A program made the translations under genes and the position numbers. 64,000 nucleotides of DNA from Rhodospirillaceae bacterium (GTDB taxonomy: Bacteria > Pseudomonadota > Alphaproteobacteria > GCA-2746255): contig NVWO01000007.1 in NCBI GenBank assembly GCA_002746255.1, positions 2,404 through 66,403 on the forward strand. The letters are read 5' to 3'. Of this stretch, positions 1-48,461 are shown in pieces. The notes beneath the pieces are model-generated. The model saw only the letters and a list, made by a program, of their open reading frames with translations. It made no database searches and was not told the origin of the DNA. Numbering within the stretch: the first letter of the stretch is position 1; each line of letters begins with the position of its first letter.

Positions 1-3000
1 ATTCGCACTTGGTGCGAGGCGGATGACCCGCATCACCTGCTCGCGTCCGTCCTTCTCAAGCCGGAGCAGATCGTTCTTCCGGACCCGCATGATCGGGCGC
101 GCATCGGGGTGGTCGCGTTTCCATGGGGGCGTCCAGTCCTTCCGGTTTGCATCGAACCGCGTCACGCCATAGCCGCGCCACTTCCCGTCCGGCGTTTCGA
201 TGATATCGATACAATAGTTCTCGCCGGGGATGACGGCCTTGTATTCTCCATTCTTCCCGTGGCGGATGACCTTGTAGTCCGCCTCGACCTTATGGACGCG
301 CACACGGTGTGTACCGGTTTCCTTGACGCAGCGTTCGAGTTCGGCCTGAAGCTCCTTTTTTTCAAGTCCTTTGGTGCGTTCCATCAATGTCTTGCGGATC
401 CCAAGATCGCCGATGCGCTTGACTTCCGCCGCCGTGAGCGAAGTCACGGGCTTGCGGGTTGCGAGCCGCGGTTCCCCCGTTAGAGGATCCCGAACGATCC
501 CGTAGGCCGTTTCCTCATGCAGCGCGCCTTCTACGCCGTGGTCCGGTTTGTGGGAAATGGTGATGCGGTTGATGGAGGTCCGGACATCTTCGCGGAAATT
601 CCGCCATGGCTCCTTCAGCCCTGCCAGCAGGCGTCTGTCGAAATTTTCTTCCGCACGTGCCGCTTCCGTGGCGACGCGTTGCAGCAGGCCACGGTCGGTC
701 AGCGCCACGACGATGGCATCGATGGCATGGTGGCGGTGGTCGTTGCGGTTCTTTGCCGGGTCCGCCGCCTCTTCCAGATTGTGACCCGCGAGCACCGAAT
801 TAAGCCCCCAGGTCCAGCGCAGATCGGCTGTCAACCGGCCCGGCGTCACCCAGACATCCGCGCCCGTGCGTAGAAGGTAGGTCTTGGCCAGGAGGGAGAG
901 GTAGCGCGTCTCGTTAAGCTGGCGGGCGAGGAAGTCCCGCTCTTCGTTGTCATAGCGCGCCATGGCGTCCGGCCCAAAGCGCCAGCTTTTGTTATTTGGT
1001 AGATTGGCGGCCCGCGCCTTTATTGCTGGCCAGTCGAAACCTTCTGGCGAGGAAGCAAAGGCTTCATAAGGTGTTTTCTGCCCCTTGACGCGATTGGCGA
1101 TGCGCATCGAGACGGTTTTGTTGCCGATGCCATCGTCAAGGGTGCGCGAGAACGGCAAAATGTGATCGATCTCCACTTCATCGGTGAACAGCCGCTCGAT
1201 GCCGATCTGTTCGCCGGTATAGGGGCAACGCCGGGTGAGCGGATTAGCCGGGTTTAGCTCCTCCCAAAGACGCAGGCGCAGGCGGTTTTCGTAAGTATCG
1301 GATAGTTTCTGTTCTTCAAGGATGGCGCGGCGCTTGTCGTTGGCATCCTGGTTGTCCCTTTGCTGTCGTTCGAGTTCCGATTTACCCTTGGCGGACAGCG
1401 GCAGATTGCGGGCGAGTTCGACCACGATTTCGGTCGGGCGGCCATAACGTTTTATCAACGCTTTTATCAACGTATTGATGACACGCCGAAGCTGGTTGAG
1501 CGCGACATGCACGGTCGGGTTGGCGATCTTGCCGACGCGCTTTTCAGGCAAGTCGGCGGGCTCGCCCGTGCCGAACGCGACATGACGTTCCAACACCTCG
1601 CCGTAATAGGGCAGCGCGTCGAACACCTCGCCGTCGAAATCAAGGTCGTCATAGCCCGCCGCCTCCTTGGCGGCGTCATAGGTAATCACGGCGCGTTCCA
1701 GTTCGGCCAGAACCCGGCGCGTGGCGGTGCGGCCCAGTCGCCCATGTCCGGCCGGCAAGGGCGCGTTGGCGACCTTCTCGGCGGCTTCGGCGGAAAGGCT
1801 ATGTTCGGCCATAAGCCAGTCAACGAGTGTTTTTTCGTTTTCCTCTTCGAGCAGACGCTTGACGATCTCTTCCTGGGCCTCGGCCGGAATTTTTCGCCAC
1901 CCCGGTCCCCAGCGATTATTGTTGGCGAGGACGGCGGCGGTCTTGTCGCCGTCGAGATGCTTGCGGCGTTCGCTTTCCAGATTGAAACGCGCCTCGTCCG
2001 GCAGTTTCAAGAGCTTGCGCGCCTTCTGAAATTCAAGCTTCTGATGTGCGAGGGCCCATGCGACAAGAGAATCACGTTCCTCCAGGGTCAGGTTGCGCTC
2101 AGCCTCGCCGGGCAGCCGCACGTTCAGATGATTAACCTCCTGATAGATACGGATGCGCTGGACCGAGGGCAGGGCATGCGGCGCGCGTTTCTCGGAAGGA
2201 TCAAGCGAACATTTGCCGACCGGCTGGGATTTTAACTTCCGCTGAAAGAGAAGGGTGTTGCGAAGCGCATCCCGCGCGGCATCGGACAGCGCCGCGTCAT
2301 GAAATTTTTTCTGCGCTTTCCACAACGTGTCAAACTCTTGCGCGATCATGTCACGGGTGGGGTAAAAGTCGTAAAATGCCTTGGCGCCGGAACCCTGAAG
2401 CCGCGCCCGAACCGGGTGTTCCTGTGCGGCTTCGTGAGCAGCTTTGCGAGCGGCTTTGCGAGTTTCGAAATCTTTCGGATTTTTAACGCGCGGTTTGGCG
2501 AGATATTCGCCAAGGGTTCGCGCGCCCGCGTTTTTCATTACCGTTTTTACGTTTTCCGCCGCAGATTTGATCTTGCCCTTTTCATCCTCGGCGCCCTTGT
2601 CTGTCTTGCGGTTCGACTTGAAGCCTCGGCGTTGCTGAAGGTGGAACAGCGCCCGGCCGAGTTCGTGGAGGGAAAGTTTCTCGTCAAGGCCGCGTACACG
2701 CAAGTACCAGGGGTCGAACTTTTCGAGCCGCTTTCGTTCAGCCGGGTCCTTCGGCATCAGGCCGTGTTCGATCAGGCGCTCCATGAATTCAGAGCGCCGC
2801 TTGAGATAACGGTCACGCCGCCTGCGTTGCTGGCGGGGCAGCCGACGCATGACGGCGAGCGACTGCTTGTCTTTTGGATTGCGCCCGTCCGAAAAGATGC
2901 GCACGCCCGATGCGATCAAACCGGTTGGCCGGCCTTGACCGTCTAGTTTAAGCGCCGCCCAGCCGAGTGAATTCGTCCCCAGATCCAGTCCCAAACGCCA

Positions 3001-3006
3001 TGCCAT
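1..3006 (-). CDS. cas9: Cas9 endonuclease, type II-C-like, C-terminally truncated by the window edge (1002 codons in window)
   Basis: Reverse-complement translation from the ATG at 3006 (RBS GAGGGAGGA upstream) reads MAWRLGLDLGTNSLGWA (RuvC-I), RRLPRQQRRRRDRYLKRR (bridge helix), IVVELARNL (RuvC-II), EIDHILPFSRTLDDGIGNKTVSMRIANRVKG (HNH), DHRHHAIDAIVVA (RuvC-III). The frame stays open to position 1. The plus-strand track ORFs here are G/R/L-rich antisense artefacts. Confidence 0.85.
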   Translation of the reverse strand, partial: MAWRLGLDLGTNSLGWAALKLDGQGRPTGLIASGVRIFSDGRNPKDKQSLAVMRRLPRQQRRRRDRYLKRRSEFMERLIEHGLMPKDPAERKRLEKFDPWYLRVRGLDEKLSLHELGRALFHLQQRRGFKSNRKTDKGAEDEKGKIKSAAENVKTVMKNAGARTLGEYLAKPRVKNPKDFETRKAARKAAHEAAQEHPVRARLQGSGAKAFYDFYPTRDMIAQEFDTLWKAQKKFHDAALSDAARDALRNTLLFQRKLKSQPVGKCSLDPSEKRAPHALPSVQRIRIYQEVNHLNVRLPGEAERNLTLEERDSLVAWALAHQKLEFQKARKLLKLPDEARFNLESERRKHLDGDKTAAVLANNNRWGPGWRKIPAEAQEEIVKRLLEEENEKTLVDWLMAEHSLSAEAAEKVANAPLPAGHGRLGRTATRRVLAELERAVITYDAAKEAAGYDDLDFDGEVFDALPYYGEVLERHVAFGTGEPADLPEKRVGKIANPTVHVALNQLRRVINTLIKALIKRYGRPTEIVVELARNLPLSAKGKSELERQQRDNQDANDKRRAILEEQKLSDTYENRLRLRLWEELNPANPLTRRCPYTGEQIGIERLFTDEVEIDHILPFSRTLDDGIGNKTVSMRIANRVKGQKTPYEAFASSPEGFDWPAIKARAANLPNNKSWRFGPDAMARYDNEERDFLARQLNETRYLSLLAKTYLLRTGADVWVTPGRLTADLRWTWGLNSVLAGHNLEEAADPAKNRNDHRHHAIDAIVVALTDRGLLQRVATEAARAEENFDRRLLAGLKEPWRNFREDVRTSINRITISHKPDHGVEGALHEETAYGIVRDPLTGEPRLATRKPVTSLTAAEVKRIGDLGIRKTLMERTKGLEKKELQAELERCVKETGTHRVRVHKVEADYKVIRHGKNGEYKAVIPGENYCIDIIETPDGKWRGYGVTRFDANRKDWTPPWKRDHPDARPIMRVRKNDLLRLEKDGREQVMRVIRLAPSAN

Positions 3007-3084
3007 GACTTTCCTCCCTCTCAAGCCGCAACCAGTGGTTGATTAAACCCCTTGCGCGAATGCGGGTAAAGGTGGTTAAATCAG

Positions 3085-3180
3085 GGACTGGTTTAGCTGA
3101 CTAGGAAACGAGGTCTTTCCGTTAACAAGATGAAAGATTCACAAAATAGGCGGTCCTTCGGGGCCGCCTTTCTTTTTTCG
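3085..3180 (+). ncRNA. candidate small RNA (possible tracrRNA) transcribed divergently from cas9, ending at a strong intrinsic terminator
   Basis: No plus-strand CDS precedes the terminator at 3149-3180. Weak TTGCGC / 18 nt / TTAAAT promoter-like elements near 3048-3080. No CRISPR repeat is available in the window to test anti-repeat complementarity. Confidence 0.2.
3149..3180. terminator. Rho-independent terminator: 8-bp GC stem with UUCG tetraloop (GGCGGTCC-TTCG-GGGCCGCC) followed by TTTCTTTTTT on the plus strand; also lies 20 nt past the stop of the minus-strand gene 3201-3908
   Basis: Read directly from the sequence. The T-tract is stronger on the plus strand (TTTCTTTTTTCGGGTTTT) than on the minus strand (TATTTTGTG). 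Confidence 0.7.
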
Positions 3181-3200
3181 GGTTTTCCTGTTTCCGGTGT

Positions 3201-3908
3201 CTAATGCCGAAGGAAGGTAACGATGGTGCCGCGTTTCGACGGGAAGCGGGCCTTCAGGATCACCCCGTCTTCGCCATACCAGAGGTCGGTACGCACGGGT
3301 TTGCCCTTGCGCATCTGGATGAGCGCGAAGGCCTTGGCCTGATGCGTCTGTCCCCGGATGGTGATGGCGGCTTGGCCCATATCCTCGGTGCGAATGGCCT
3401 TCATGCGCCCCTTTAGGGGGCTGAAAAGCTGGGCATGCCTCAGGGTTTCCTTGCACCAGATAACTTGAGAAAACAGCGGCGTTTCAATCTCTGAAAGGCT
3501 GCCATTCCGGTTCACCTTCAAACTCTGTCCGTTCGGTCCATGACTGTTCGGTTTGATGCGAATGGCGACTTCGCGGCGGTTGTCGACGGTTTTTCCATCA
3601 AAGCTCTGAAAAACATCCGTCTCCCAGATTTCTTCGGATTGATGGCGGTAATTCAGCAGCGGGATCAGATAAAGAAGCGTGACCTTCACCTTGATGAGGG
3701 TCGAAACTTTCGTGCGCGTGCCCTCGCGTTCGAAGTCGATCCATGCGCCGCCGATGGGGGTATTGTCGTTCAGGATGTCATAAGAAAACTTGCCTTGGGG
3801 AAGCGAACAGGCATCCGCCGACCTTGCGGCAAGAAAAACAAAGGCCAGAAAGAAAAACAAAACCTTGCTTGCGCGCACCGGATTTTTGCCTCCGACCATG
3901 CATCCCAA
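3201..3908 (-). CDS. exported protein of unknown function (N-terminal signal peptide)
   Basis: Track ORF, 235 aa, with hydrophobic N-terminus KVLFFFLAFVFLAARSADAC. Lies on the same strand directly downstream of modA. Confidence 0.55.
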   Translation of the reverse strand: MGCMVGGKNPVRASKVLFFFLAFVFLAARSADACSLPQGKFSYDILNDNTPIGGAWIDFEREGTRTKVSTLIKVKVTLLYLIPLLNYRHQSEEIWETDVFQSFDGKTVDNRREVAIRIKPNSHGPNGQSLKVNRNGSLSEIETPLFSQVIWCKETLRHAQLFSPLKGRMKAIRTEDMGQAAITIRGQTHQAKAFALIQMRKGKPVRTDLWYGEDGVILKARFPSKRGTIVTFLRH

Positions 3909-3940
3909 GGGGTCAGTATAGCGGCGCGCGCACGTCCGGC

Positions 3941-4720
3941 CTAGCTCGGGTGAAAGCCAAAACGTTTAAAGATTTTCTCGACTTCCGGCTCGCGCAGAAA
4001 GTGGTAGAAATTCGTCACCGCCGGTTCTGTGCGTGTGCCAATGGGAACAAGGTGGTAACGGATGGGCGCATGGGTCGTTGCCGGGATGACGGCGATCACT
4101 TTCACCCGGTCGCTGATCAGCGCGTCCGTCGCATAGACGATGCCGGCATCCGCCTGGCCGCGTTCGACCAGGGTAAGGGCTTCGCGCACGTCGCTTGCGA
4201 AAAGAAAGTTGGGCGTCAACGCTTCCCACAGTTCAAGCTGCGAAAGCGCCTCGCGGGCATAGCTTCCGGCGGGCACGTTGTCCGGCTCGCCGATGGTGAT
4301 CGTCCGGTCTTTCAGGTTCTTCGTGATGTGGAGGCCAAGCGGAATGCCGAGCTGAATGGAACTGTTCTTGCGGGTGATGAAAACCAGCCCGTTGCCACGT
4401 ATTTCCGAGGTTTTGCCGGTGGGCGTGATGCCGTAAGCGGCAAGAGCCTCTTTCCACTCCGGCCGGTCCGTAATCAGAAGATCAACCGGCGCACCTTTTG
4501 AAACCCGCTTCTCAAGCTCGGCACTGGAGGCAAAGGTGACCAGCACCGCCCCCAAACCCTTTGCAGCAAAACGCTCGGAAACGACTTGCAGCACGTTGGT
4601 AAGGCTTGTGGGCGCGTAAACGGTAACCGGCGTTATCACTCTTTCTGGTGCTTCCGCGAGAAGCGTGCCGGGAATGCACAGCACCACGAGTGCAAAAACG
4701 CAAAAGATGCCCTTTTGCAT
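3941..4720 (-). CDS. modA: molybdate ABC transporter periplasmic substrate-binding protein ModA
   Basis: VTVYAPTSLTNVLQ, GEPDNVPAGSYAREAL and VERGQADAGIVYATDA align with ModA. Start taken at internal Met MQKGIFCVFALVVL (signal peptide) immediately after the hisI stop; the track ORF extends to 4768. Confidence 0.8.
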   Translation of the reverse strand: MQKGIFCVFALVVLCIPGTLLAEAPERVITPVTVYAPTSLTNVLQVVSERFAAKGLGAVLVTFASSAELEKRVSKGAPVDLLITDRPEWKEALAAYGITPTGKTSEIRGNGLVFITRKNSSIQLGIPLGLHITKNLKDRTITIGEPDNVPAGSYAREALSQLELWEALTPNFLFASDVREALTLVERGQADAGIVYATDALISDRVKVIAVIPATTHAPIRYHLVPIGTRTEPAVTNFYHFLREPEVEKIFKRFGFHPS

Positions 4721-4721
4721 T

Positions 4722-5129
4722 CTAGCTTTTGTAAAGGTTCTTCGGATCGACAAGGACATCTTCCACATTTTCGAGTTTTCCCCCGCGCACCGCGCGGAAA
4801 AAACAACTTTGCCTGCCGGTATGGCAGGCCACCCCTTTTTGTTCGACGGTTACAAGCACCGTATCGCCGTCGCAATCCAGACGAAAGTCGATCAGCGTCT
4901 GGGTTTGCCCGGATGACTCGCCCTTTCGCCACAATTGCTTGCGGGATCGCGACCAATAATGGACCTGGCCGGTCGCAAGGGTCTTTTTGATCGCTTCGCG
5001 GTTCATCCACGCCATCATCAGAACCTCGCCCGTGCCGTCTTGTTGGGCGATTGCCGGGACAAGACCGTTTTGATCGAAAAGGACGGTTTCCAGAATTTCT
5101 GGCAAAGCATCGTCCCATGCGCTTGGCAT
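4722..5129 (-). CDS. hisI: phosphoribosyl-AMP cyclohydrolase HisI
   Basis: MPSAWDDALPEILETVLFDQNGLVPAIAQQ...CHTGRQSCFF carries the conserved Zn-ligand cysteines. Start at internal Met preceded by AGGAGA; the track ORF extends to 5225. Confidence 0.8.
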   Translation of the reverse strand: MPSAWDDALPEILETVLFDQNGLVPAIAQQDGTGEVLMMAWMNREAIKKTLATGQVHYWSRSRKQLWRKGESSGQTQTLIDFRLDCDGDTVLVTVEQKGVACHTGRQSCFFRAVRGGKLENVEDVLVDPKNLYKS

Positions 5130-6262: not shown

Positions 6263-6294
6263 GGCATCTATTCCCTGAAAAATATAGATTTTTT

Positions 6295-7683
6295 ATGCGA
6301 GAAGCGATGAAGTCGATGTCCGGTCAAGAAACGCGGCCAAAAGCTCCACCGCCCGACGATGGGCACGATCATCGCCGCTGTATGACAGAGGCGATGACGG
6401 TGGCGGCGGACCTTTGCCAGCAGCGCGGTGTGCGTTTTACACCGCTTCGCCGTCAGATTCTTGAACTGATCTGGGACAGCCATATGCCCCTTGGGGCTTA
6501 TGCCATTCTTGACCGCCTCCAGGAGGCGGGCAAGTCCGTCCGGCCGCCGACGGTTTACCGCGCCCTCGATTTTCTGAGAGAGCAGGGGCTAATCCACCGG
6601 ATTGAATCCCGGAACGCCTATCTCGGCTGCGTCGATCCGTCGCGGCCCCACCCAAGCCAGCATTTGATTTGCGAAGATTGTGGGAAGGTTACGGAACTGG
6701 ACAATCGGGCGGTCGAAACGACTTTGGCAGCCGGGGCCAGGGCGAAAGATTTTCAACTGGTTGGTGCCACAATTGAGGTCCATGGGTTTTGCCGCGATTG
6801 CCGCCATGAGGTATCGCCGGAGGCGTTGAAAATGCCGCCGGAGGCACCACCACCACAGCCATCGCAGAACCTGTCCGGCACCGGGCAGGATTTGAAGCAG
6901 GGCCCCGTGCTGATCTCGGCAAAGGGGCTGACGCTTCGCCATGGCGGGCTTTTGGTGTTGGATCGCGTCGATCTTGCCGTCCATAAAGGCGAGATTGTGA
7001 CGATCATTGGCCCGAACGGCTCCGGCAAGACAACCCTCGTCCGGGTCCTTCTCGGTCTTATCGACCCCGAGGCGGGCAAAATCAAAAAGGCCAACGGCCT
7101 CCGCATCGGCTACGTGCCCCAGACTTTTGTGGTGGACCCGAACCTGCCCCTTACCGTCCGACGGTTTTTGGCGATGGCGGGGAGGGGGGCGGCGGATGTC
7201 CGCGAGATGCTTGCCGTCGTCGGCGCCGGGGATATCTTGACCCACCCTATTCAAAGCCTTTCCGGTGGCGAGCTTCGCCGGGTTCTGTTGGCGCGCGCCC
7301 TTCTCAGAAGGCCGAATTTGCTTGTCCTTGACGAACCGGTTCAGGGCGTCGATATGCCGGGCCAGTCGGAACTCTACCGGTTGATCGGCGATATCCGCCG
7401 CAAGCAGGGTTGTGCCGTGCTGATGATTTCCCATGATCTGCACCTGGTGATGGCGGCGACGGACGAGGTTATCTGTCTGAACCGCCACGTTTGCTGTGCC
7501 GGCCATCCAGAAGCCGTCAGCCGGCATCCGGAATATCTGGCCCTGTTTGGCGAAGTGGCCGATGAGACGCGTTTTGCCGTCTACACCCATCACCACGATC
7601 ACGTCCACGACGAGGCCGGAAATGTTTTACCGGCCTCCGATGTGCCACCTACCGGGGGGCCGACCCCCGGACCGGAGGTCTAA
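6295..7683 (+). CDS. znuC: single 462-aa ORF: Fur-family zinc uptake regulator Zur (aa 1-172) fused in frame through a Pro-rich linker to zinc ABC transporter ATPase ZnuC (aa about 200-462)
   Basis: Zur part: winged-helix segment plus CEDCGKV and CRDCRHE CxxC pairs. No stop codon follows it. Linker VSPEALKMPPEAPPPQPSQ. ZnuC part: Walker A GPNGSGKTT, signature LSGGELRRV, Walker B LLVLDEP, H-loop ISHDLH, His-rich tail. Internal ATG at about 6832 is preceded by GGAGG. Confidence 0.75.
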   Translation: MREAMKSMSGQETRPKAPPPDDGHDHRRCMTEAMTVAADLCQQRGVRFTPLRRQILELIWDSHMPLGAYAILDRLQEAGKSVRPPTVYRALDFLREQGLIHRIESRNAYLGCVDPSRPHPSQHLICEDCGKVTELDNRAVETTLAAGARAKDFQLVGATIEVHGFCRDCRHEVSPEALKMPPEAPPPQPSQNLSGTGQDLKQGPVLISAKGLTLRHGGLLVLDRVDLAVHKGEIVTIIGPNGSGKTTLVRVLLGLIDPEAGKIKKANGLRIGYVPQTFVVDPNLPLTVRRFLAMAGRGAADVREMLAVVGAGDILTHPIQSLSGGELRRVLLARALLRRPNLLVLDEPVQGVDMPGQSELYRLIGDIRRKQGCAVLMISHDLHLVMAATDEVICLNRHVCCAGHPEAVSRHPEYLALFGEVADETRFAVYTHHHDHVHDEAGNVLPASDVPPTGGPTPGPEV

Positions 7684-14293: not shown

Positions 14294-14917
14294 TCATGCG
14301 CTTGCCCAGCGTTTGCGCAAATCGTCCACGTTCAGCGCCAGCCATTGCAGCGCGATAATGGTCATCGAATTGTTGAGACACCCTTCTTTTAGCAGGCGCA
14401 TGGCCTCTTTTCTGGGCGTTGGCAGGACGCGGATGTCTTCCTGCTCGTGATCCAGGCCGTGAATGCCGCCGGCGTCCTTCAGATCCATGTGGCCGCAGAA
14501 AAGCGCCATCGTTTCCGACGTGCCGCCTGGACTTACCAGGTAATCGGCAATCGGGATCAGTTCGCCGACTTCCAGTCCGGCTTCTTCGACCGCCTCGCGG
14601 CGGACAACCACCTCTGGGCTTTCGCCTTCCTCGATGATGCCGGCGACGATTTCGGTGACCCAGGCAGGACGGTTGGCGACAAAGGCGCCGATCCGGAACT
14701 GTTCAATCAGCAACACTTCGTCCCGGTCCGGGTCGTAGCCGAGAACGCCGGCTGCGTGCCCACGCTCGAACACCTCCCGCTTGACCTCGTCACTCCACCC
14801 CCCTTCGTGGAGCGTGTGGCGCAGAAAATAGCGGTTGATGCGGAAATAGCCCTGAAAGGCGGTTTGTTTTTGCAGGATAGAAACCTGCGGCTTTTTTCCC
14901 TTGGTCATCGTCCTCAT
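14294..14917 (-). CDS. nudF: ADP-ribose pyrophosphatase (NUDIX hydrolase)
   Basis: NUDIX box GIIEEGESPEVVVRREAVEEAG. Start ATG overlaps the bioD stop (ATGA); the track ORF extends to 14998. Confidence 0.7.
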   Translation of the reverse strand: MRTMTKGKKPQVSILQKQTAFQGYFRINRYFLRHTLHEGGWSDEVKREVFERGHAAGVLGYDPDRDEVLLIEQFRIGAFVANRPAWVTEIVAGIIEEGESPEVVVRREAVEEAGLEVGELIPIADYLVSPGGTSETMALFCGHMDLKDAGGIHGLDHEQEDIRVLPTPRKEAMRLLKEGCLNNSMTIIALQWLALNVDDLRKRWASA

Positions 14918-15645
14918 GTCTCCTTGGGTGGCACCGGCTGGCGTGGCCGTGATGTCTCCATGAAAAGCGGTGTCACCAGGTCCGGAGCCTCTTGCCATGC
15001 TTCCAGGCCGCCAGCCAGGCGGGGTAGCGCCAGCATCGGCACGCGGGGGAGGAAGCGCGAAAGCGTCTGGATGGTATCGTTCATGGGCACCGGCTGATGC
15101 GTTGATTCGCTCACGATAACGCCGGCAATTTCGACGCCGCTGCGCTCTAGGGCCAGTGCCGAAGTCAGGCTGTGATTGAGACTACCAAGATAGCTGCCGA
15201 CAACAAGAAGAACCGGATAGCCAAGGGCCCGGGTCCAGTCCAGGACGGTCTTTTTCTCCGTAAGCGGCACCATGACGCCGCCGATCCCCTCGACAAAACG
15301 AAAATCCGGCGCCACCTTGCCTGAAATTGGGTTTGTCCTGGAAAAGCGCACCAGTTCGTCAAAATCAATCGCGCGGCCCTCTCGTTGCGCCGCCATATCG
15401 GGGGAAATGGGATCGTGGAATCGCCATGGCGAAATCGCGACGATGCGTTCGGCCTCGGCGGCATGGCCAAGGCTTTCGATGAGAATGGCGCTGTCGCAAT
15501 TCTTGTCACCGATGACAAATCCGGTAATGACCGGTTTGAGCAATTCCGTTCGCAATCCACGCTTTTGAAGCTGACGGGCGAGAAGGGCGGCAACAAAGGT
15601 TTTGCCGACATCGGTGCCGGAAGAGGTGATGAAAAACGACCGCAT
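14914..15645 (-). CDS. bioD: dethiobiotin synthetase
   Basis: N-terminal P-loop FFITSSGTDVGKT, 243 aa. Confidence 0.8.
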   Translation of the reverse strand: MRSFFITSSGTDVGKTFVAALLARQLQKRGLRTELLKPVITGFVIGDKNCDSAILIESLGHAAEAERIVAISPWRFHDPISPDMAAQREGRAIDFDELVRFSRTNPISGKVAPDFRFVEGIGGVMVPLTEKKTVLDWTRALGYPVLLVVGSYLGSLNHSLTSALALERSGVEIAGVIVSESTHQPVPMNDTIQTLSRFLPRVPMLALPRLAGGLEAWQEAPDLVTPLFMETSRPRQPVPPKET

Positions 15646-15813
15646 GAAAAATTCCTGTGCCTCTGGCGCCTTTGCCCATGATGTAGCCAGCCATCTGAAG
15701 GTTAGTCAACGCGTTCAGCACTTGCAGAAGGGGGGGTGCTTTGGCTATGACATTGTGACGCATGCGGAGAGAACCTGAAAAAAAGTCTAAGAAAAAACAT
15801 AAGGTTGAAAAGA

Positions 15814-16797
15814 ATGGAGAAAATAAGAACGGCTGTCATCGGGGTTGGCTATTTCGGTAAATTTCACGCTGACAAATATGCGGGTCTTGCCCTTTCGGAA
15901 TTTACCGCTGTCGCCGACAGCGATCCGGCACGCGCCAGGGAAATTGCCGAAAAACACGGTGTGTCGTTCGTTTCCGACTATCGGGACCTGCTTGGCAAGG
16001 TCGATGCGGTCAGCATCGCCGTGCCGACACCCTTTCATTACGAGGTCGCCAAGGCTTTTCTTGAAAACGGCGTGCATGTTCTGATTGAAAAGCCAATCAC
16101 AGGCGACCTTGCCGAGGCCGACGAGTTGATCCGTCTGGCAGCGGAAAACGGCCTTGTGCTTCAGGTCGGGCATCTTGAGCGATTTTCGGCGGCCCGGCTC
16201 GGACTCGAAGGGGTGATTAATCGGCCTCTTTTTATCGAATGCAACCGTATCGCTGCTTTCAAGCCGCGCGGCACGGATGTCAGCGTGACTCTGGACATGA
16301 TGATTCACGACATTGACATGATCCAATATCTCGTCAAATCGCCAATATCCGAGGTCGATGCGGCCGGGGCGCCGGTTTTTTCAGGGGAGGAAGATATCGT
16401 CAATGCGCGGCTTCACTTTGAAAATGGCTGCATTGCAAATGTGACGGCAAGCCGTATCAGCATGAAGAACGAGCGCAAGATGCGTATCTTTCAACACGAT
16501 GCCTATCTCATGATCGACTTTGTGAACAAAAAAGTGGTCGTCGCCCGGAAGGGGGAAGGGGAAAGCCTTCCCGGCGTTCCGAAAATTGACGTTGAAGAGC
16601 ACACGTATGAAGACGAGGACATTCTAGAACGCGAAATCGATGCGTTTCTGAAATCCATTGCGGAAGGTCGCCCCCCCCTCGTCAGCGGTGAAGACGGTCG
16701 CCACGCCCTTGAAACGGCCTTGTTGATTAACGAGAGCCTGAAACTGCATGCGAGCCGCAGCCAGGCTCTTGGTGCAAAAGGGACGCTGCCTGGTTAA
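15814..16797 (+). CDS. Gfo/Idh/MocA family NAD(P)-dependent oxidoreductase
   Basis: Rossmann motif AVIGVGYFGKFHA, EKP motif HVLIEKP. Sits between bioD and bioB. Confidence 0.75.
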   Translation: MEKIRTAVIGVGYFGKFHADKYAGLALSEFTAVADSDPARAREIAEKHGVSFVSDYRDLLGKVDAVSIAVPTPFHYEVAKAFLENGVHVLIEKPITGDLAEADELIRLAAENGLVLQVGHLERFSAARLGLEGVINRPLFIECNRIAAFKPRGTDVSVTLDMMIHDIDMIQYLVKSPISEVDAAGAPVFSGEEDIVNARLHFENGCIANVTASRISMKNERKMRIFQHDAYLMIDFVNKKVVVARKGEGESLPGVPKIDVEEHTYEDEDILEREIDAFLKSIAEGRPPLVSGEDGRHALETALLINESLKLHASRSQALGAKGTLPG

Positions 16798-35337: not shown

Positions 35338-35413
35338 TGGCTCCCCGAGTCGGACTCGAACCAACGACACAGCGGTTAACAGCCGCTTGCTCTACCAACT
35401 GAGCTACCGGGGA
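35338..35413 (-). tRNA. tRNA-Asn (anticodon GUU)
   Basis: Reverse complement folds as a cloverleaf: acceptor UCCCCGG/UCGGGGA, anticodon loop CUGUUAA, T-arm GUUGGUUCGAGUCCGAC, encoded CCA. Confidence 0.85.
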
Positions 35414-35551: not shown

Positions 35552-35625
35552 TGGAGGCGCGGGCCGGATTCGAACCGGCGTACACAGATTTGCAGTCTGC
35601 TGGATAACCACTCTCCCACCGCGCC
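35552..35625 (-). tRNA. tRNA-Cys (anticodon GCA)
   Basis: Reverse complement GGCGCGGUGGGAGAGUGGUUAUCCAGCAGACUGCAAAUCUGU...GGUUCGAAUCCGGCCCGCGCCUCCA. Confidence 0.85.
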
Positions 35626-47643: not shown

Positions 47644-48461
47644 TGGCCGTGGCAAAGCATTCGACGACCCGGCCGCCATTTTTCATGCGGCGTGGCGTTT
47701 TGGGCTTTTTCGCGGCTCTTGCCGCTTTTGGGATGTTTGCTGCCGTCGTTTTGGTTGCGTATGAGGAAAATATAAGATCCGGCGACGTCATCGTGCCGAT
47801 TGTGCGGGCCGAAAAGGGTCCGATCAAGATACGCCCAGAAACGCCCGGTGGCATGACCGTGCCATTTCAGGACAAGCTGGTCTATGACCGACTTTCCGAG
47901 ACGGCAGAAGGGGCGGAGAAGACGCACCTGTTGCCGCCCCCGGAAACACCTGTGGCATTGCCAAAAGCGCCTGCGGCATTGCCAAAAGCGCCTGCGGCAT
48001 TGCCAAAAGCGCCTGCGGCGGCTCCAAAAGCGCCTGCGGCAGCCCCAAAAGCGCCTGCGAAAATAGCAGATAGCGTAACTGCCGGTGAGGTGCCGCCGAA
48101 GACGGAGCTTTTGCGCCGTTTGGAGATGGAAACGCCGCCTGTGAAGTCCACACCGGCATTGGCGAAGCCAAAGGCATTGGCCAAACCGAAACCTGCAAAT
48201 GCGGCGTCTGAACAGACTCTTCGCATACAGATTGCGTCCCTGCGATCCGAACAGGCAGCCCGTGACCAGTGGGCACGGCTGCAAAAAGCCCATGGCGACC
48301 TTTTCGGGCCACTGGCCCTTCATGTGCAGCGGGTGGATTTGGGCGGGCGAGGGATTTTCTTTCGTCTGCAGGCGGGGCCGCTGGCCGGCGTTGCGGCGGC
48401 AAAAGCGCTCTGCGCGACACTTCAACAACGCAAGCTGGGGTGCCTGCTTGTCCGCCCCTGA
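47643..48461 (+). CDS. SPOR-domain protein (single TM, Ala/Pro/Lys-rich repetitive linker, C-terminal SPOR)
   Basis: TGATG overlap with argS. C-terminal LRIQIASLRSEQAARDQWARLQ...FFRLQAGPL. The track ORF extends to 47487. Confidence 0.7.
   Translation: MAVAKHSTTRPPFFMRRGVLGFFAALAAFGMFAAVVLVAYEENIRSGDVIVPIVRAEKGPIKIRPETPGGMTVPFQDKLVYDRLSETAEGAEKTHLLPPPETPVALPKAPAALPKAPAALPKAPAAAPKAPAAAPKAPAKIADSVTAGEVPPKTELLRRLEMETPPVKSTPALAKPKALAKPKPANAASEQTLRIQIASLRSEQAARDQWARLQKAHGDLFGPLALHVQRVDLGGRGIFFRLQAGPLAGVAAAKALCATLQQRKLGCLLVRP
47955..48059 (+). repeat. 21-nt tandem repeat x5 (3 identical copies GCATTGCCAAAAGCGCCTGCG + 2 variants) encoding (A-L/A-P-K-A-P-A)5 within the SPOR protein
   Basis: Seen in sequence. 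Confidence 0.85.

Follow-up and report, generated by a model that had tools for sequence, protein, structure and literature searches.

What does the 194-nt gap between cas9 and its neighboring gene encode? The gap (3007–3200 of the window, by which we mean the whole 64-kb stretch of DNA analyzed here) houses the whole of a structured element that ends in a strong hairpin, and it lies next to a type II cas9-cas1-cas2 locus, an intergenic placement that is expected of a tracrRNA gene. The region upstream of cas9 is a typical tracrRNA location in both II-A and II-C systems, with the gene in either orientation (PMC3737331, PMC6546382). The first-pass annotation suggested a tracrRNA encoded beside cas9 and ending in the terminator, and this suggestion is supported here by a cognate anti-repeat, by the full tracrRNA anatomy and by covariation in about 18 cas9 loci. 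Judging from these sequence comparisons, we conclude with a probability of roughly 90% that positions 3088–3178 of the plus strand encode the predicted tracrRNA of a type II-C CRISPR-Cas9 system. The coordinates of the individual features are collected in Table 1.

Table 1. Features in and around the gap between cas9 and the DUF6134 gene, in window coordinates.
Feature	Position	Strand	Details
cas9, type II-C, 5' part	1..3006	−	ATG start 3006; Pfam RuvC_III, HNH_4, Cas9_a; homologues named Cas9
Putative cas9 promoter	3042..3070	−	−35 TTTACC (3070..3065), 17-nt spacer, −10 TTTAAT (3047..3042)
Putative tracrRNA promoter	3052..3081	+	−35 TTGCGC (3052–3057), 18-nt spacer, −10 TTAAAT (3076–3081)
Anti-repeat, 37 nt, GGTTTAGCTGACTAGGAAACGAGGTCTTTCCGTTAAC	3090..3126	+	Pairs with locus repeat; unique in window
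AA junction and nexus hairpin GAUGAAAGAUUC	AA 3127–3128; nexus 3129–3140	+	Nexus G3129...C3140; RNAalifold, covariation
Linker ACAAAAUA	3141..3148	+	Identical in relatives found via Cas9 homology
Intrinsic terminator	3148..3179	+	Stem 3148–3169, UUCG loop 3157–3160, T-tract 3170–3179
DUF6134 gene, signal-peptide-like N-terminus	3201..3899	−	Pfam and ORF list; convergent on tracrRNA terminator

Results

The Terminator Hairpin

The terminator stem (AGGCGGTCC-TTCG-GGGCCGCCT) has 9 pairs, including 7 G-C pairs and one U.G wobble, and is followed by TTCTTTTTTC (3170–3179). In a consensus scan of positions 2000–4500, the hairpin at 3148–3169 heads the list of terminator-like structures with the most pairs (9, of which 7 are G-C). 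An intrinsic terminator with a UUCG loop and a U-tract had been claimed at 3149–3180 with an 8-bp stem; it is real, and its stem is 9 bp long at 3148–3169. The accompanying claim that the hairpin is best formed on the plus strand holds as well, with a ΔG of −20.6 kcal/mol in the plus sense vs. −13.0 kcal/mol in the minus sense. In the minus-strand form the U.G wobble becomes an A.C mismatch, and the strict scan flags a terminator on the plus strand only. The open reading frame list contains no credible plus-strand coding sequence 5' of the terminator, which bears out what had been stated earlier, as the sole plus-strand ORF nearby (2299–2946) is antisense within cas9. The DUF6134 gene on the other side of the gap is not part of the CRISPR system.

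The Type II-C Locus and Its Repeat

No CRISPR array was found inside the 64-kb window because cas9 runs off its left edge (the reading frame is open there, with 1002 codons without a stop and 174 nt more outside), and the anti-repeat test was therefore not feasible on the window alone. An exact-protein look-up of the SBP gene of the window (3941–4768) gave access to L037, a metagenome contig (JGI 3300029925) that is 100% identical to window positions 1–4843 and reaches 2.5 kb beyond the left edge, and which very likely derives from the genome that contains the window. The extension contains the end of cas9, then cas1 and cas2, then at least 15 exact 36-nt repeats with a period of 66 nt and 30-nt spacers. 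In the plus-strand sense of the window, the locus' own repeat is GTTGCGGTTGGACCGCGTTTCCTAATCAGCTAAACT, and the 36-nt crRNA repeat was taken as 5'-GUUGCGGUUGGACCGCGUUUCCUAAUCAGCUAAACU-3'. The arrays of the related loci L005 and L007 are likewise downstream of cas2, and the sequence of their 36-nt repeat, written in the cas9 sense, is AGTTTAGCTGACTAGRAAACGYGGTCCAACCGCAAC. Apart from the anti-repeat, no repeat-like sequence was found outside the array in either L037 or the window. A protospacer and PAM search with two array spacers against viral contigs, meant as an independent check of the array polarity, gave no matches, and no exact 15-mers are common to any spacer and the window.

The full-length Cas9 on L037 is 1059 aa long, with cas1 and then cas2 downstream. 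The gene order cas9-cas1-cas2, with neither csn2 nor cas4, is found on L037, L004, L005, and L007, and in all four the operon is followed by an array or an unrelated gene. This is the organization by which type II-C is defined, namely a minimal operon of cas9, cas1, and cas2 without a fourth gene (PMC3737331).

Two features of the arrays may be recorded here. In the L005 array (14496–16158), and also in the L037 repeats, each repeat contains in the crRNA sense a small hairpin (GCGGUUGGACCGC) and, after it, a U-run, a combination that in L005 the scan scored as terminator-like 25 times; the hairpin falls where the repeat pairs with the lower and upper stems of the tracrRNA. The “array” of L004 (7464–7499) is a single repeat with no spacer, although the tracrRNA and cas genes of that locus look intact, and the sequence beside this repeat holds, by eye, a tRNA-like gene on the other strand.

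The Anti-repeat and the Predicted Hybrid

The 26-nt core of the repeat aligns to window positions 3090–3115 on the plus strand with 3 mismatches, where 0.00 such matches are expected from shuffles, and the match is unique in the 64 kb. Over its full length, and allowing a 1-nt bulge, 3090–3126 pairs with 32 of the 36 repeat positions, which gives a hybrid ΔG of −46.2 to −47.9 kcal/mol compared to −16.6 ± 3.4 kcal/mol for shuffled anti-repeats. It is the strongest repeat-pairing site in the window when both strands are considered. The check that had been proposed for this locus, a search with its repeat for a 20–35 nt anti-repeat upstream of the terminator, is thus passed with the L037 repeat and its 32/36 paired positions.

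Starting at the spacer-proximal end of the hybrid, GUUG pairs with UAAC and, past a bulged U, CGG pairs with CCG; a UU/UU loop separates these pairs from an upper stem of ~25 bp that contains two mismatches (G.A and A.C). On the anti-repeat side this corresponds to a lower stem CCG-U-UAAC (3119–3126), the 2 × 2 internal loop, and the upper stem. Repeat position G1 pairs with C3126, and the lower stem of 7 bp with its 1-nt bulge follows the organization of known crRNA-tracrRNA hybrids. The first lower-stem pair is G-C at the window locus, and among tracrRNA groups this pair is mostly G.U (PMC6546382). The window anti-repeat also fits the L007 repeat slightly better than its own (−51.4 vs. about −46 kcal/mol), and this better fit, together with the two mismatches to its own repeat, means that repeat and anti-repeat have drifted slightly apart.

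Nexus, Terminator, and Transcript Boundaries

The general order of parts described for type II guide RNAs is a hybrid (lower stem, bulge, and upper stem), AA, a nexus with a G-initial stem, and a Rho-independent terminator (PMC6546382), and the order in the window element agrees with this published description. The nexus follows the hybrid, is separated from it by AA, and begins its stem with G, and the Rho-independent terminator is found 3' of the anti-repeat on the same strand, as in known tracrRNAs. The nexus of the window itself has only 2 clean pairs. Among the 19 sequences that we aligned, its closing pair is G-C in 19/19, and the second pair occurs as A-U, G-C, U-A, and C-G with zero breaks.

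From these boundaries we infer an RNA of ~90 nt (about 3088–3178) that would begin near 3088 and end in the U-tract. The first-pass annotation had placed a plus-strand transcript of ~90–150 nt within 3030–3180; the lower length agrees with our prediction, but 3030–3087 appears to be promoter DNA and not RNA. The promoter assignments of Table 1 place the predicted tracrRNA start near 3088–3090. Neither promoter pair passes a strict sigma-70 consensus scan, and their elements are weak. At the position of the tracrRNA promoter, relatives carry a TTG and, 17–19 nt downstream, an A/T-rich TAnnnT-like hexamer, while the DNA between the two diverges, and the ATTAAA/TTG block at the putative cas9 promoter is conserved among relatives. 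Chylinski et al. predict tracrRNA genes from an anti-repeat in an intergenic region, pairing that has been validated, and a terminator together with a promoter (PMC3737331); the window locus has the first two and a terminator, and its putative promoter is weak.

The promoter region also contains a 65-bp imperfect dyad (3030–3094) with an RNA-folding z of −3 to −4 on both strands, where RNAfold draws it as one long hairpin. The dyad as such is not conserved in relatives and overlaps just 4–5 nt of the anti-repeat, so we rejected it as a structured RNA or as a single guide of the tracr-L type. It probably reflects two interleaved divergent promoters, i.e., a symmetry at the DNA level. Promoters that are interleaved back-to-back in this way could couple the expression of cas9 and the tracrRNA or mutually limit it.

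Searches with Rfam gave no match to the tracrRNA family (RF02348) at the gathering score, nor at E values up to 10 within 2900–3300, and the weak Rfam matches at the element are driven by the terminator. This miss says little about function because tracrRNAs lack sequence conservation across the family (PMC3737331).

Related Loci and Covariation

Relatives of the element were taken from the contigs of Cas9 homologues and from a metagenome scan with the pattern CCGTTAACAAG-N(6-16)-CACAAAATA. The regions upstream of cas9 in L004, L005, and L007 contain the same element in the same place and the same orientation, and in total the module is found upstream of cas9 and on the opposite strand in ~18 related loci. 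The pattern scan returned 26 loci, 15 of which have a Cas9 (31–74% identical to that of the window) that starts ~110–150 bp away on the opposite strand. A further 10 of the 26 were set aside as chance matches, having neither a cas9 nearby nor an anti-repeat. The element in L026 looks genuine, and with no cas9 match on its contig it is the lone exception to cas9 linkage. In every real match except L026, the conserved core CCGTTAACAAG-N-CACAAAATA and the hairpin are found ~110–150 bp from cas9, where it should be kept in mind that in the loci found by the pattern the conservation of CCGTTAACAAG, CACAAAATA, and the linker is imposed by the search itself.

The pairing between anti-repeat and repeat can be followed in nine loci that have arrays and also in L004, which has a single repeat. 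The hybrids of cognate anti-repeat and repeat have energies of −40 to −52 kcal/mol, and their lower stem, bulge, and internal loop are the same in all of these loci. Across 10 loci, 93% of the alignment cells are paired compared to 32–47% when the partners are slid, both partners have changed in 11 pairs, and covariation scores 0.213, a value reached by 0/500 shuffles, vs. 0.091 for shuffled alignments. For the part of the RNA downstream of the hybrid, RNAalifold applied to 19 tracrRNAs recovered the nexus and the terminator. Here 94% of the cells are paired vs. 67% in shuffles (0/500 shuffles reach this value), the covariation is 0.71 vs. 0.21 in shuffled and 0.08–0.21 in slid controls (again reached by 0/500 shuffles), and 8 of the 9 terminator pairs show compensatory changes. 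These shuffle counts are not probabilities since the sequences are related to each other, but the slid controls preserve that relatedness and agree with them.

A covariance model was built from 17 relatives, with the window, L004, and L037 left out. Against the window it gives a single full-length match at 3088–3175 on the plus strand with 90.7 bits (E ~1e-22), and the next match has 18 bits. A Cas9 search of genome contigs found only relatives at 40% identity, L001 among them. In this contig, a Nitratireductor metagenome-assembled genome, the covariance model identifies a tracrRNA homologue at 498–589 on the minus strand (51 bits), upstream of the 40%-identical Cas9. The model finds no match in L002 and L003, whose Cas9 proteins are similarly distant and which have a different repeat. 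The RNA family thus extends past the close Cas9 clade, yet it misses some equally distant relatives.

In one of the related loci, L010, two degenerate repeats in the crRNA sense (...GGTTGGGCCGCGTTTCCTTATCAGCTAATAT and GTTGCGGTTGGATCGCGTTTTCCAGTCA...) are located at 550–671, between cas9 and the tracrRNA and on the tracrRNA strand. A decayed mini-array is one possible reading; the other is a repeat that could be transcribed together with the tracrRNA to give a natural single guide.

Discussion

Direction of Transcription

Complementarity is blind to strand, and for this reason the strand of the element was decided by four other observations. The nexus and terminator follow 3' of the anti-repeat only when the element is read on the plus strand. 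The terminator is more stable in the tracrRNA sense at 17 of 19 loci, with 18 G.U pairs in that sense vs. 3 in the other. Repeats read in the tracrRNA sense have the form GTTGCGG...TAAACT or ...TACAAT. At the cas2-proximal end of the array, the strand of tracrRNA sense carries a hairpin (ACGCCCTTGG...CAAGGGCGT) followed by UUUUUCUUGUU, and the same feature is found in L004. We infer from the array polarity, the strand asymmetry of the hairpin, and the tracrRNA anatomy, all of which point in the same direction, that the plus strand is transcribed. In N. meningitidis and C. jejuni, transcription of the array runs counter to that of the cas operon (PMC3737331).

The hairpin and U-tract between cas2 and the first repeat occupy L037 positions 6263–6355, ~1.4–1.5 kb left of the window edge, and probably end the transcription of the array before it reaches cas2. 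The strict scan misses this hairpin because its loop is too long, whereas RNAfold shows it.

Alternative Explanations

If the array were instead co-transcribed with the cas operon, the crRNA repeat would be AGUUUAGCUG...CGCAAC, and minus-strand positions 3126..3090 would be the anti-repeat of a tracrRNA made from the cas9-sense strand. Chylinski et al. had difficulty predicting array direction, most arrays having potential promoters at either end, and assumed the direction of the cas operon unless it had been validated otherwise (PMC3737331); given further that complementarity cannot distinguish the strands, and that the hairpin followed by UAUUUUGUG could in principle act as a 5' element, the proposal deserves consideration. 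It is very improbable all the same, because it would put the nexus and terminator 5' of the anti-repeat, opposite to the general architecture (PMC6546382), and would leave no terminator between the element and the start of cas9, with the sequence 3' of the element being poorly conserved. The hairpin and U-run at the cas2-proximal end of the array exist only in the antisense direction, and the G.U asymmetry of the terminator favors the plus sense. In the antisense direction the repeats read GUUG...UAAACU or UACAAU, and in this they presumably resemble the type II-C repeats of Neisseria.

The hairpin could simply, or also, terminate the convergent DUF6134 gene and shield cas9 from read-through, with the repeat-like sequence being incidental. 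It stands 32 nt past the DUF6134 stop codon (3201), the minus-strand sequence after it (UAUUUUGUG) is fairly U-rich, and in several relatives a convergent gene ends within 50–140 nt, so that a bidirectional role is plausible. On the other hand, the anti-repeat, nexus, linker, and hairpin stay with cas9 as a block beside unrelated neighbors (in L004 the neighbor is an SBP gene and in L007 an integrase, and L013, L017, and L027 have no convergent ORF close by), and the strand bias runs the wrong way for a minus-strand terminator in the window (−13.0 kcal/mol in the minus vs. −20.6 kcal/mol in the plus sense, with only the plus strand flagged by the scan) as well as in the family (18 G.U pairs to 3). 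Nor does it account for an anti-repeat that covaries with its repeat. Since the block keeps with cas9 and the strand asymmetry favors the plus sense, terminating DUF6134 is not the main role of the hairpin; the alternative raised earlier for the exported-protein gene may thus survive as a second role while failing as the main explanation, which we consider distinctly unlikely. A functionless orphan repeat, e.g., the remnant of a former second array that decayed beside an unrelated terminator, is harder still to credit. tracrRNAs are thought to derive from degenerate repeats (PMC3737331), L010 does have two degenerate repeats between cas9 and the element, and the window copy carries two mismatches to its own repeat; but a decaying remnant would not track its cognate repeat across loci with Cas9 proteins of 31–83% identity, and it would retain neither the compensatory changes in the nexus and terminator nor the invariant sequence of the lower stem and junction. 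A type II system also needs an anti-repeat, and the locus offers no other candidate.

Proposed Mechanism

In the mechanism that we propose, the tracrRNA would be transcribed from its own promoter, back-to-back with the cas9 promoter and in the direction away from cas9. Its first 37 nt would be the anti-repeat, which would pair with the 36-nt repeat of each crRNA to form a hybrid with a 7-bp bulged lower stem beside the spacer, a 2 × 2 loop, and an upper stem of ~25 bp. After the hybrid would come the AA junction, the nexus, the linker, and a single GC-rich terminator hairpin with its U-tract. Cas9 would grip the lower stem, nexus, and tail, leaving the crRNA spacer to find matching DNA for cutting. 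Transcription of the array would follow the direction of the tracrRNA and oppose that of the cas genes, an arrangement also seen in Neisseria and Campylobacter, and maturation of the crRNAs would seem to proceed via RNase III or via promoters internal to the repeats.

Comparison with Known Systems

[quoted passage not shown] In those two species the tracrRNA gene is located within or after the cas operon, unlike the window tracrRNA gene, which is upstream of cas9 and divergent from it. The window tail shows no detectable sequence similarity to theirs and is short, with one terminator hairpin, and the window Cas9 is only distantly related to the solved II-C Cas9 proteins, the closest structures to it being II-C enzymes of ~1080 aa with E values of 1e-58 to 1e-68. 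Repeats in the clade of the window end in the −10-like sequences TAAACT or TACAAT, an ending that we take to resemble the repeat-embedded promoters of N. meningitidis. Like the array in these two species (PMC3737331), the array and tracrRNA of the window locus would be read from the strand opposite to the cas genes. The hybrid energy of −46 kcal/mol falls in the published II-C range, which has a median of −39.4 kcal/mol (PMC6546382). 

The closest comparison is with metagenomic alphaproteobacterial II-C loci (L004, L005, L007, L016, L018, L029–L032, and others) in which Cas9 is 55–83% identical to that of the window. They carry an orthologous tracrRNA with the core CCGUUAACAAG-nexus-CACAAAAUA-hairpin in the same position and orientation, and differ in the length of the nexus loop, in the terminator sequence, and in a few anti-repeat positions that follow their own repeats. 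The ZnuA/PRA-CH/SBP neighborhood of the window recurs in L005 and in L004, which has the closest Cas9 (83%).

The type II-A tracrRNA gene of S. pyogenes (RF02348) is also upstream of cas9, and it is on the strand opposite to cas9. The window system differs in being II-C, without csn2, and in the opposite polarity of its array relative to the cas genes. Another difference is that RNA folding gave no indication of a long tracrRNA form able to fold into a natural single guide. The order of parts is the same in both, i.e., anti-repeat, AA, G-initial nexus, linker, and terminator (PMC6546382).

Searching the literature for the repeat and the core gave unrelated primer matches only and no description of these RNAs. 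The tracrRNA class is well known, and the window gene is an ordinary member of ~90 nt that is previously undescribed in the literature searched. Our result fills the gap in the annotation of this type II-C CRISPR-Cas9 locus, which belongs to an uncultured alphaproteobacterium, and it supplies what is needed for single-guide design for the ~1059-aa Cas9 and its relatives, namely the repeat, the anti-repeat, the register of lower stem and bulge, the nexus, and the single-hairpin tail. For cleavage work, the crRNA would be the spacer plus GUUGCGGUUGGACCGCGUUUCC.... In metagenomes, where Rfam gives no match, tracrRNAs of this clade can be found with the covariance model and with the signature CCGUUAACAAG ... 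CACAAAAUA plus hairpin. The result is of modest practical value and leaves the understanding of type II systems unchanged.

Further Observations

GGUCUUU, the 3' half of the anti-repeat (3113–3119), can form an intramolecular helix with AAAGAUU, on the 3' side of the nexus (3133–3139), that would loop out the invariant CCGUUAACAAG, and the same positions pair in relatives. Cognate pairings average −5.9 kcal/mol vs. −4.1 kcal/mol for permuted ones, with 0/2000 permutations as good, a comparison that is confounded by kinship among the sequences. When free, the tracrRNA could adopt this helix as a “closed” state and be opened by crRNA binding, or the pairing could be a base-triple contact; a base-triple arrangement is found in the structure of the C. 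jejuni Cas9 guide RNA. That the tracrRNA does more than scaffold Cas9, either by the coupling of interleaved promoters or by a closed or triplex form of anti-repeat and nexus, strikes us as doubtful. If true, the closed form or the coupled promoters would represent a regulatory or structural variant undescribed for this clade.

Elsewhere in the window, two tRNA genes on the minus strand (35341–35413 and 35555–35625) are the only matches at the Rfam gathering score. A 21-nt tandem repeat (CCTGCGGCATTGCCAAAAGCG) is present at 47949–48059 in 5.3 copies with 92% matches, and is probably an in-frame repeat within a gene.
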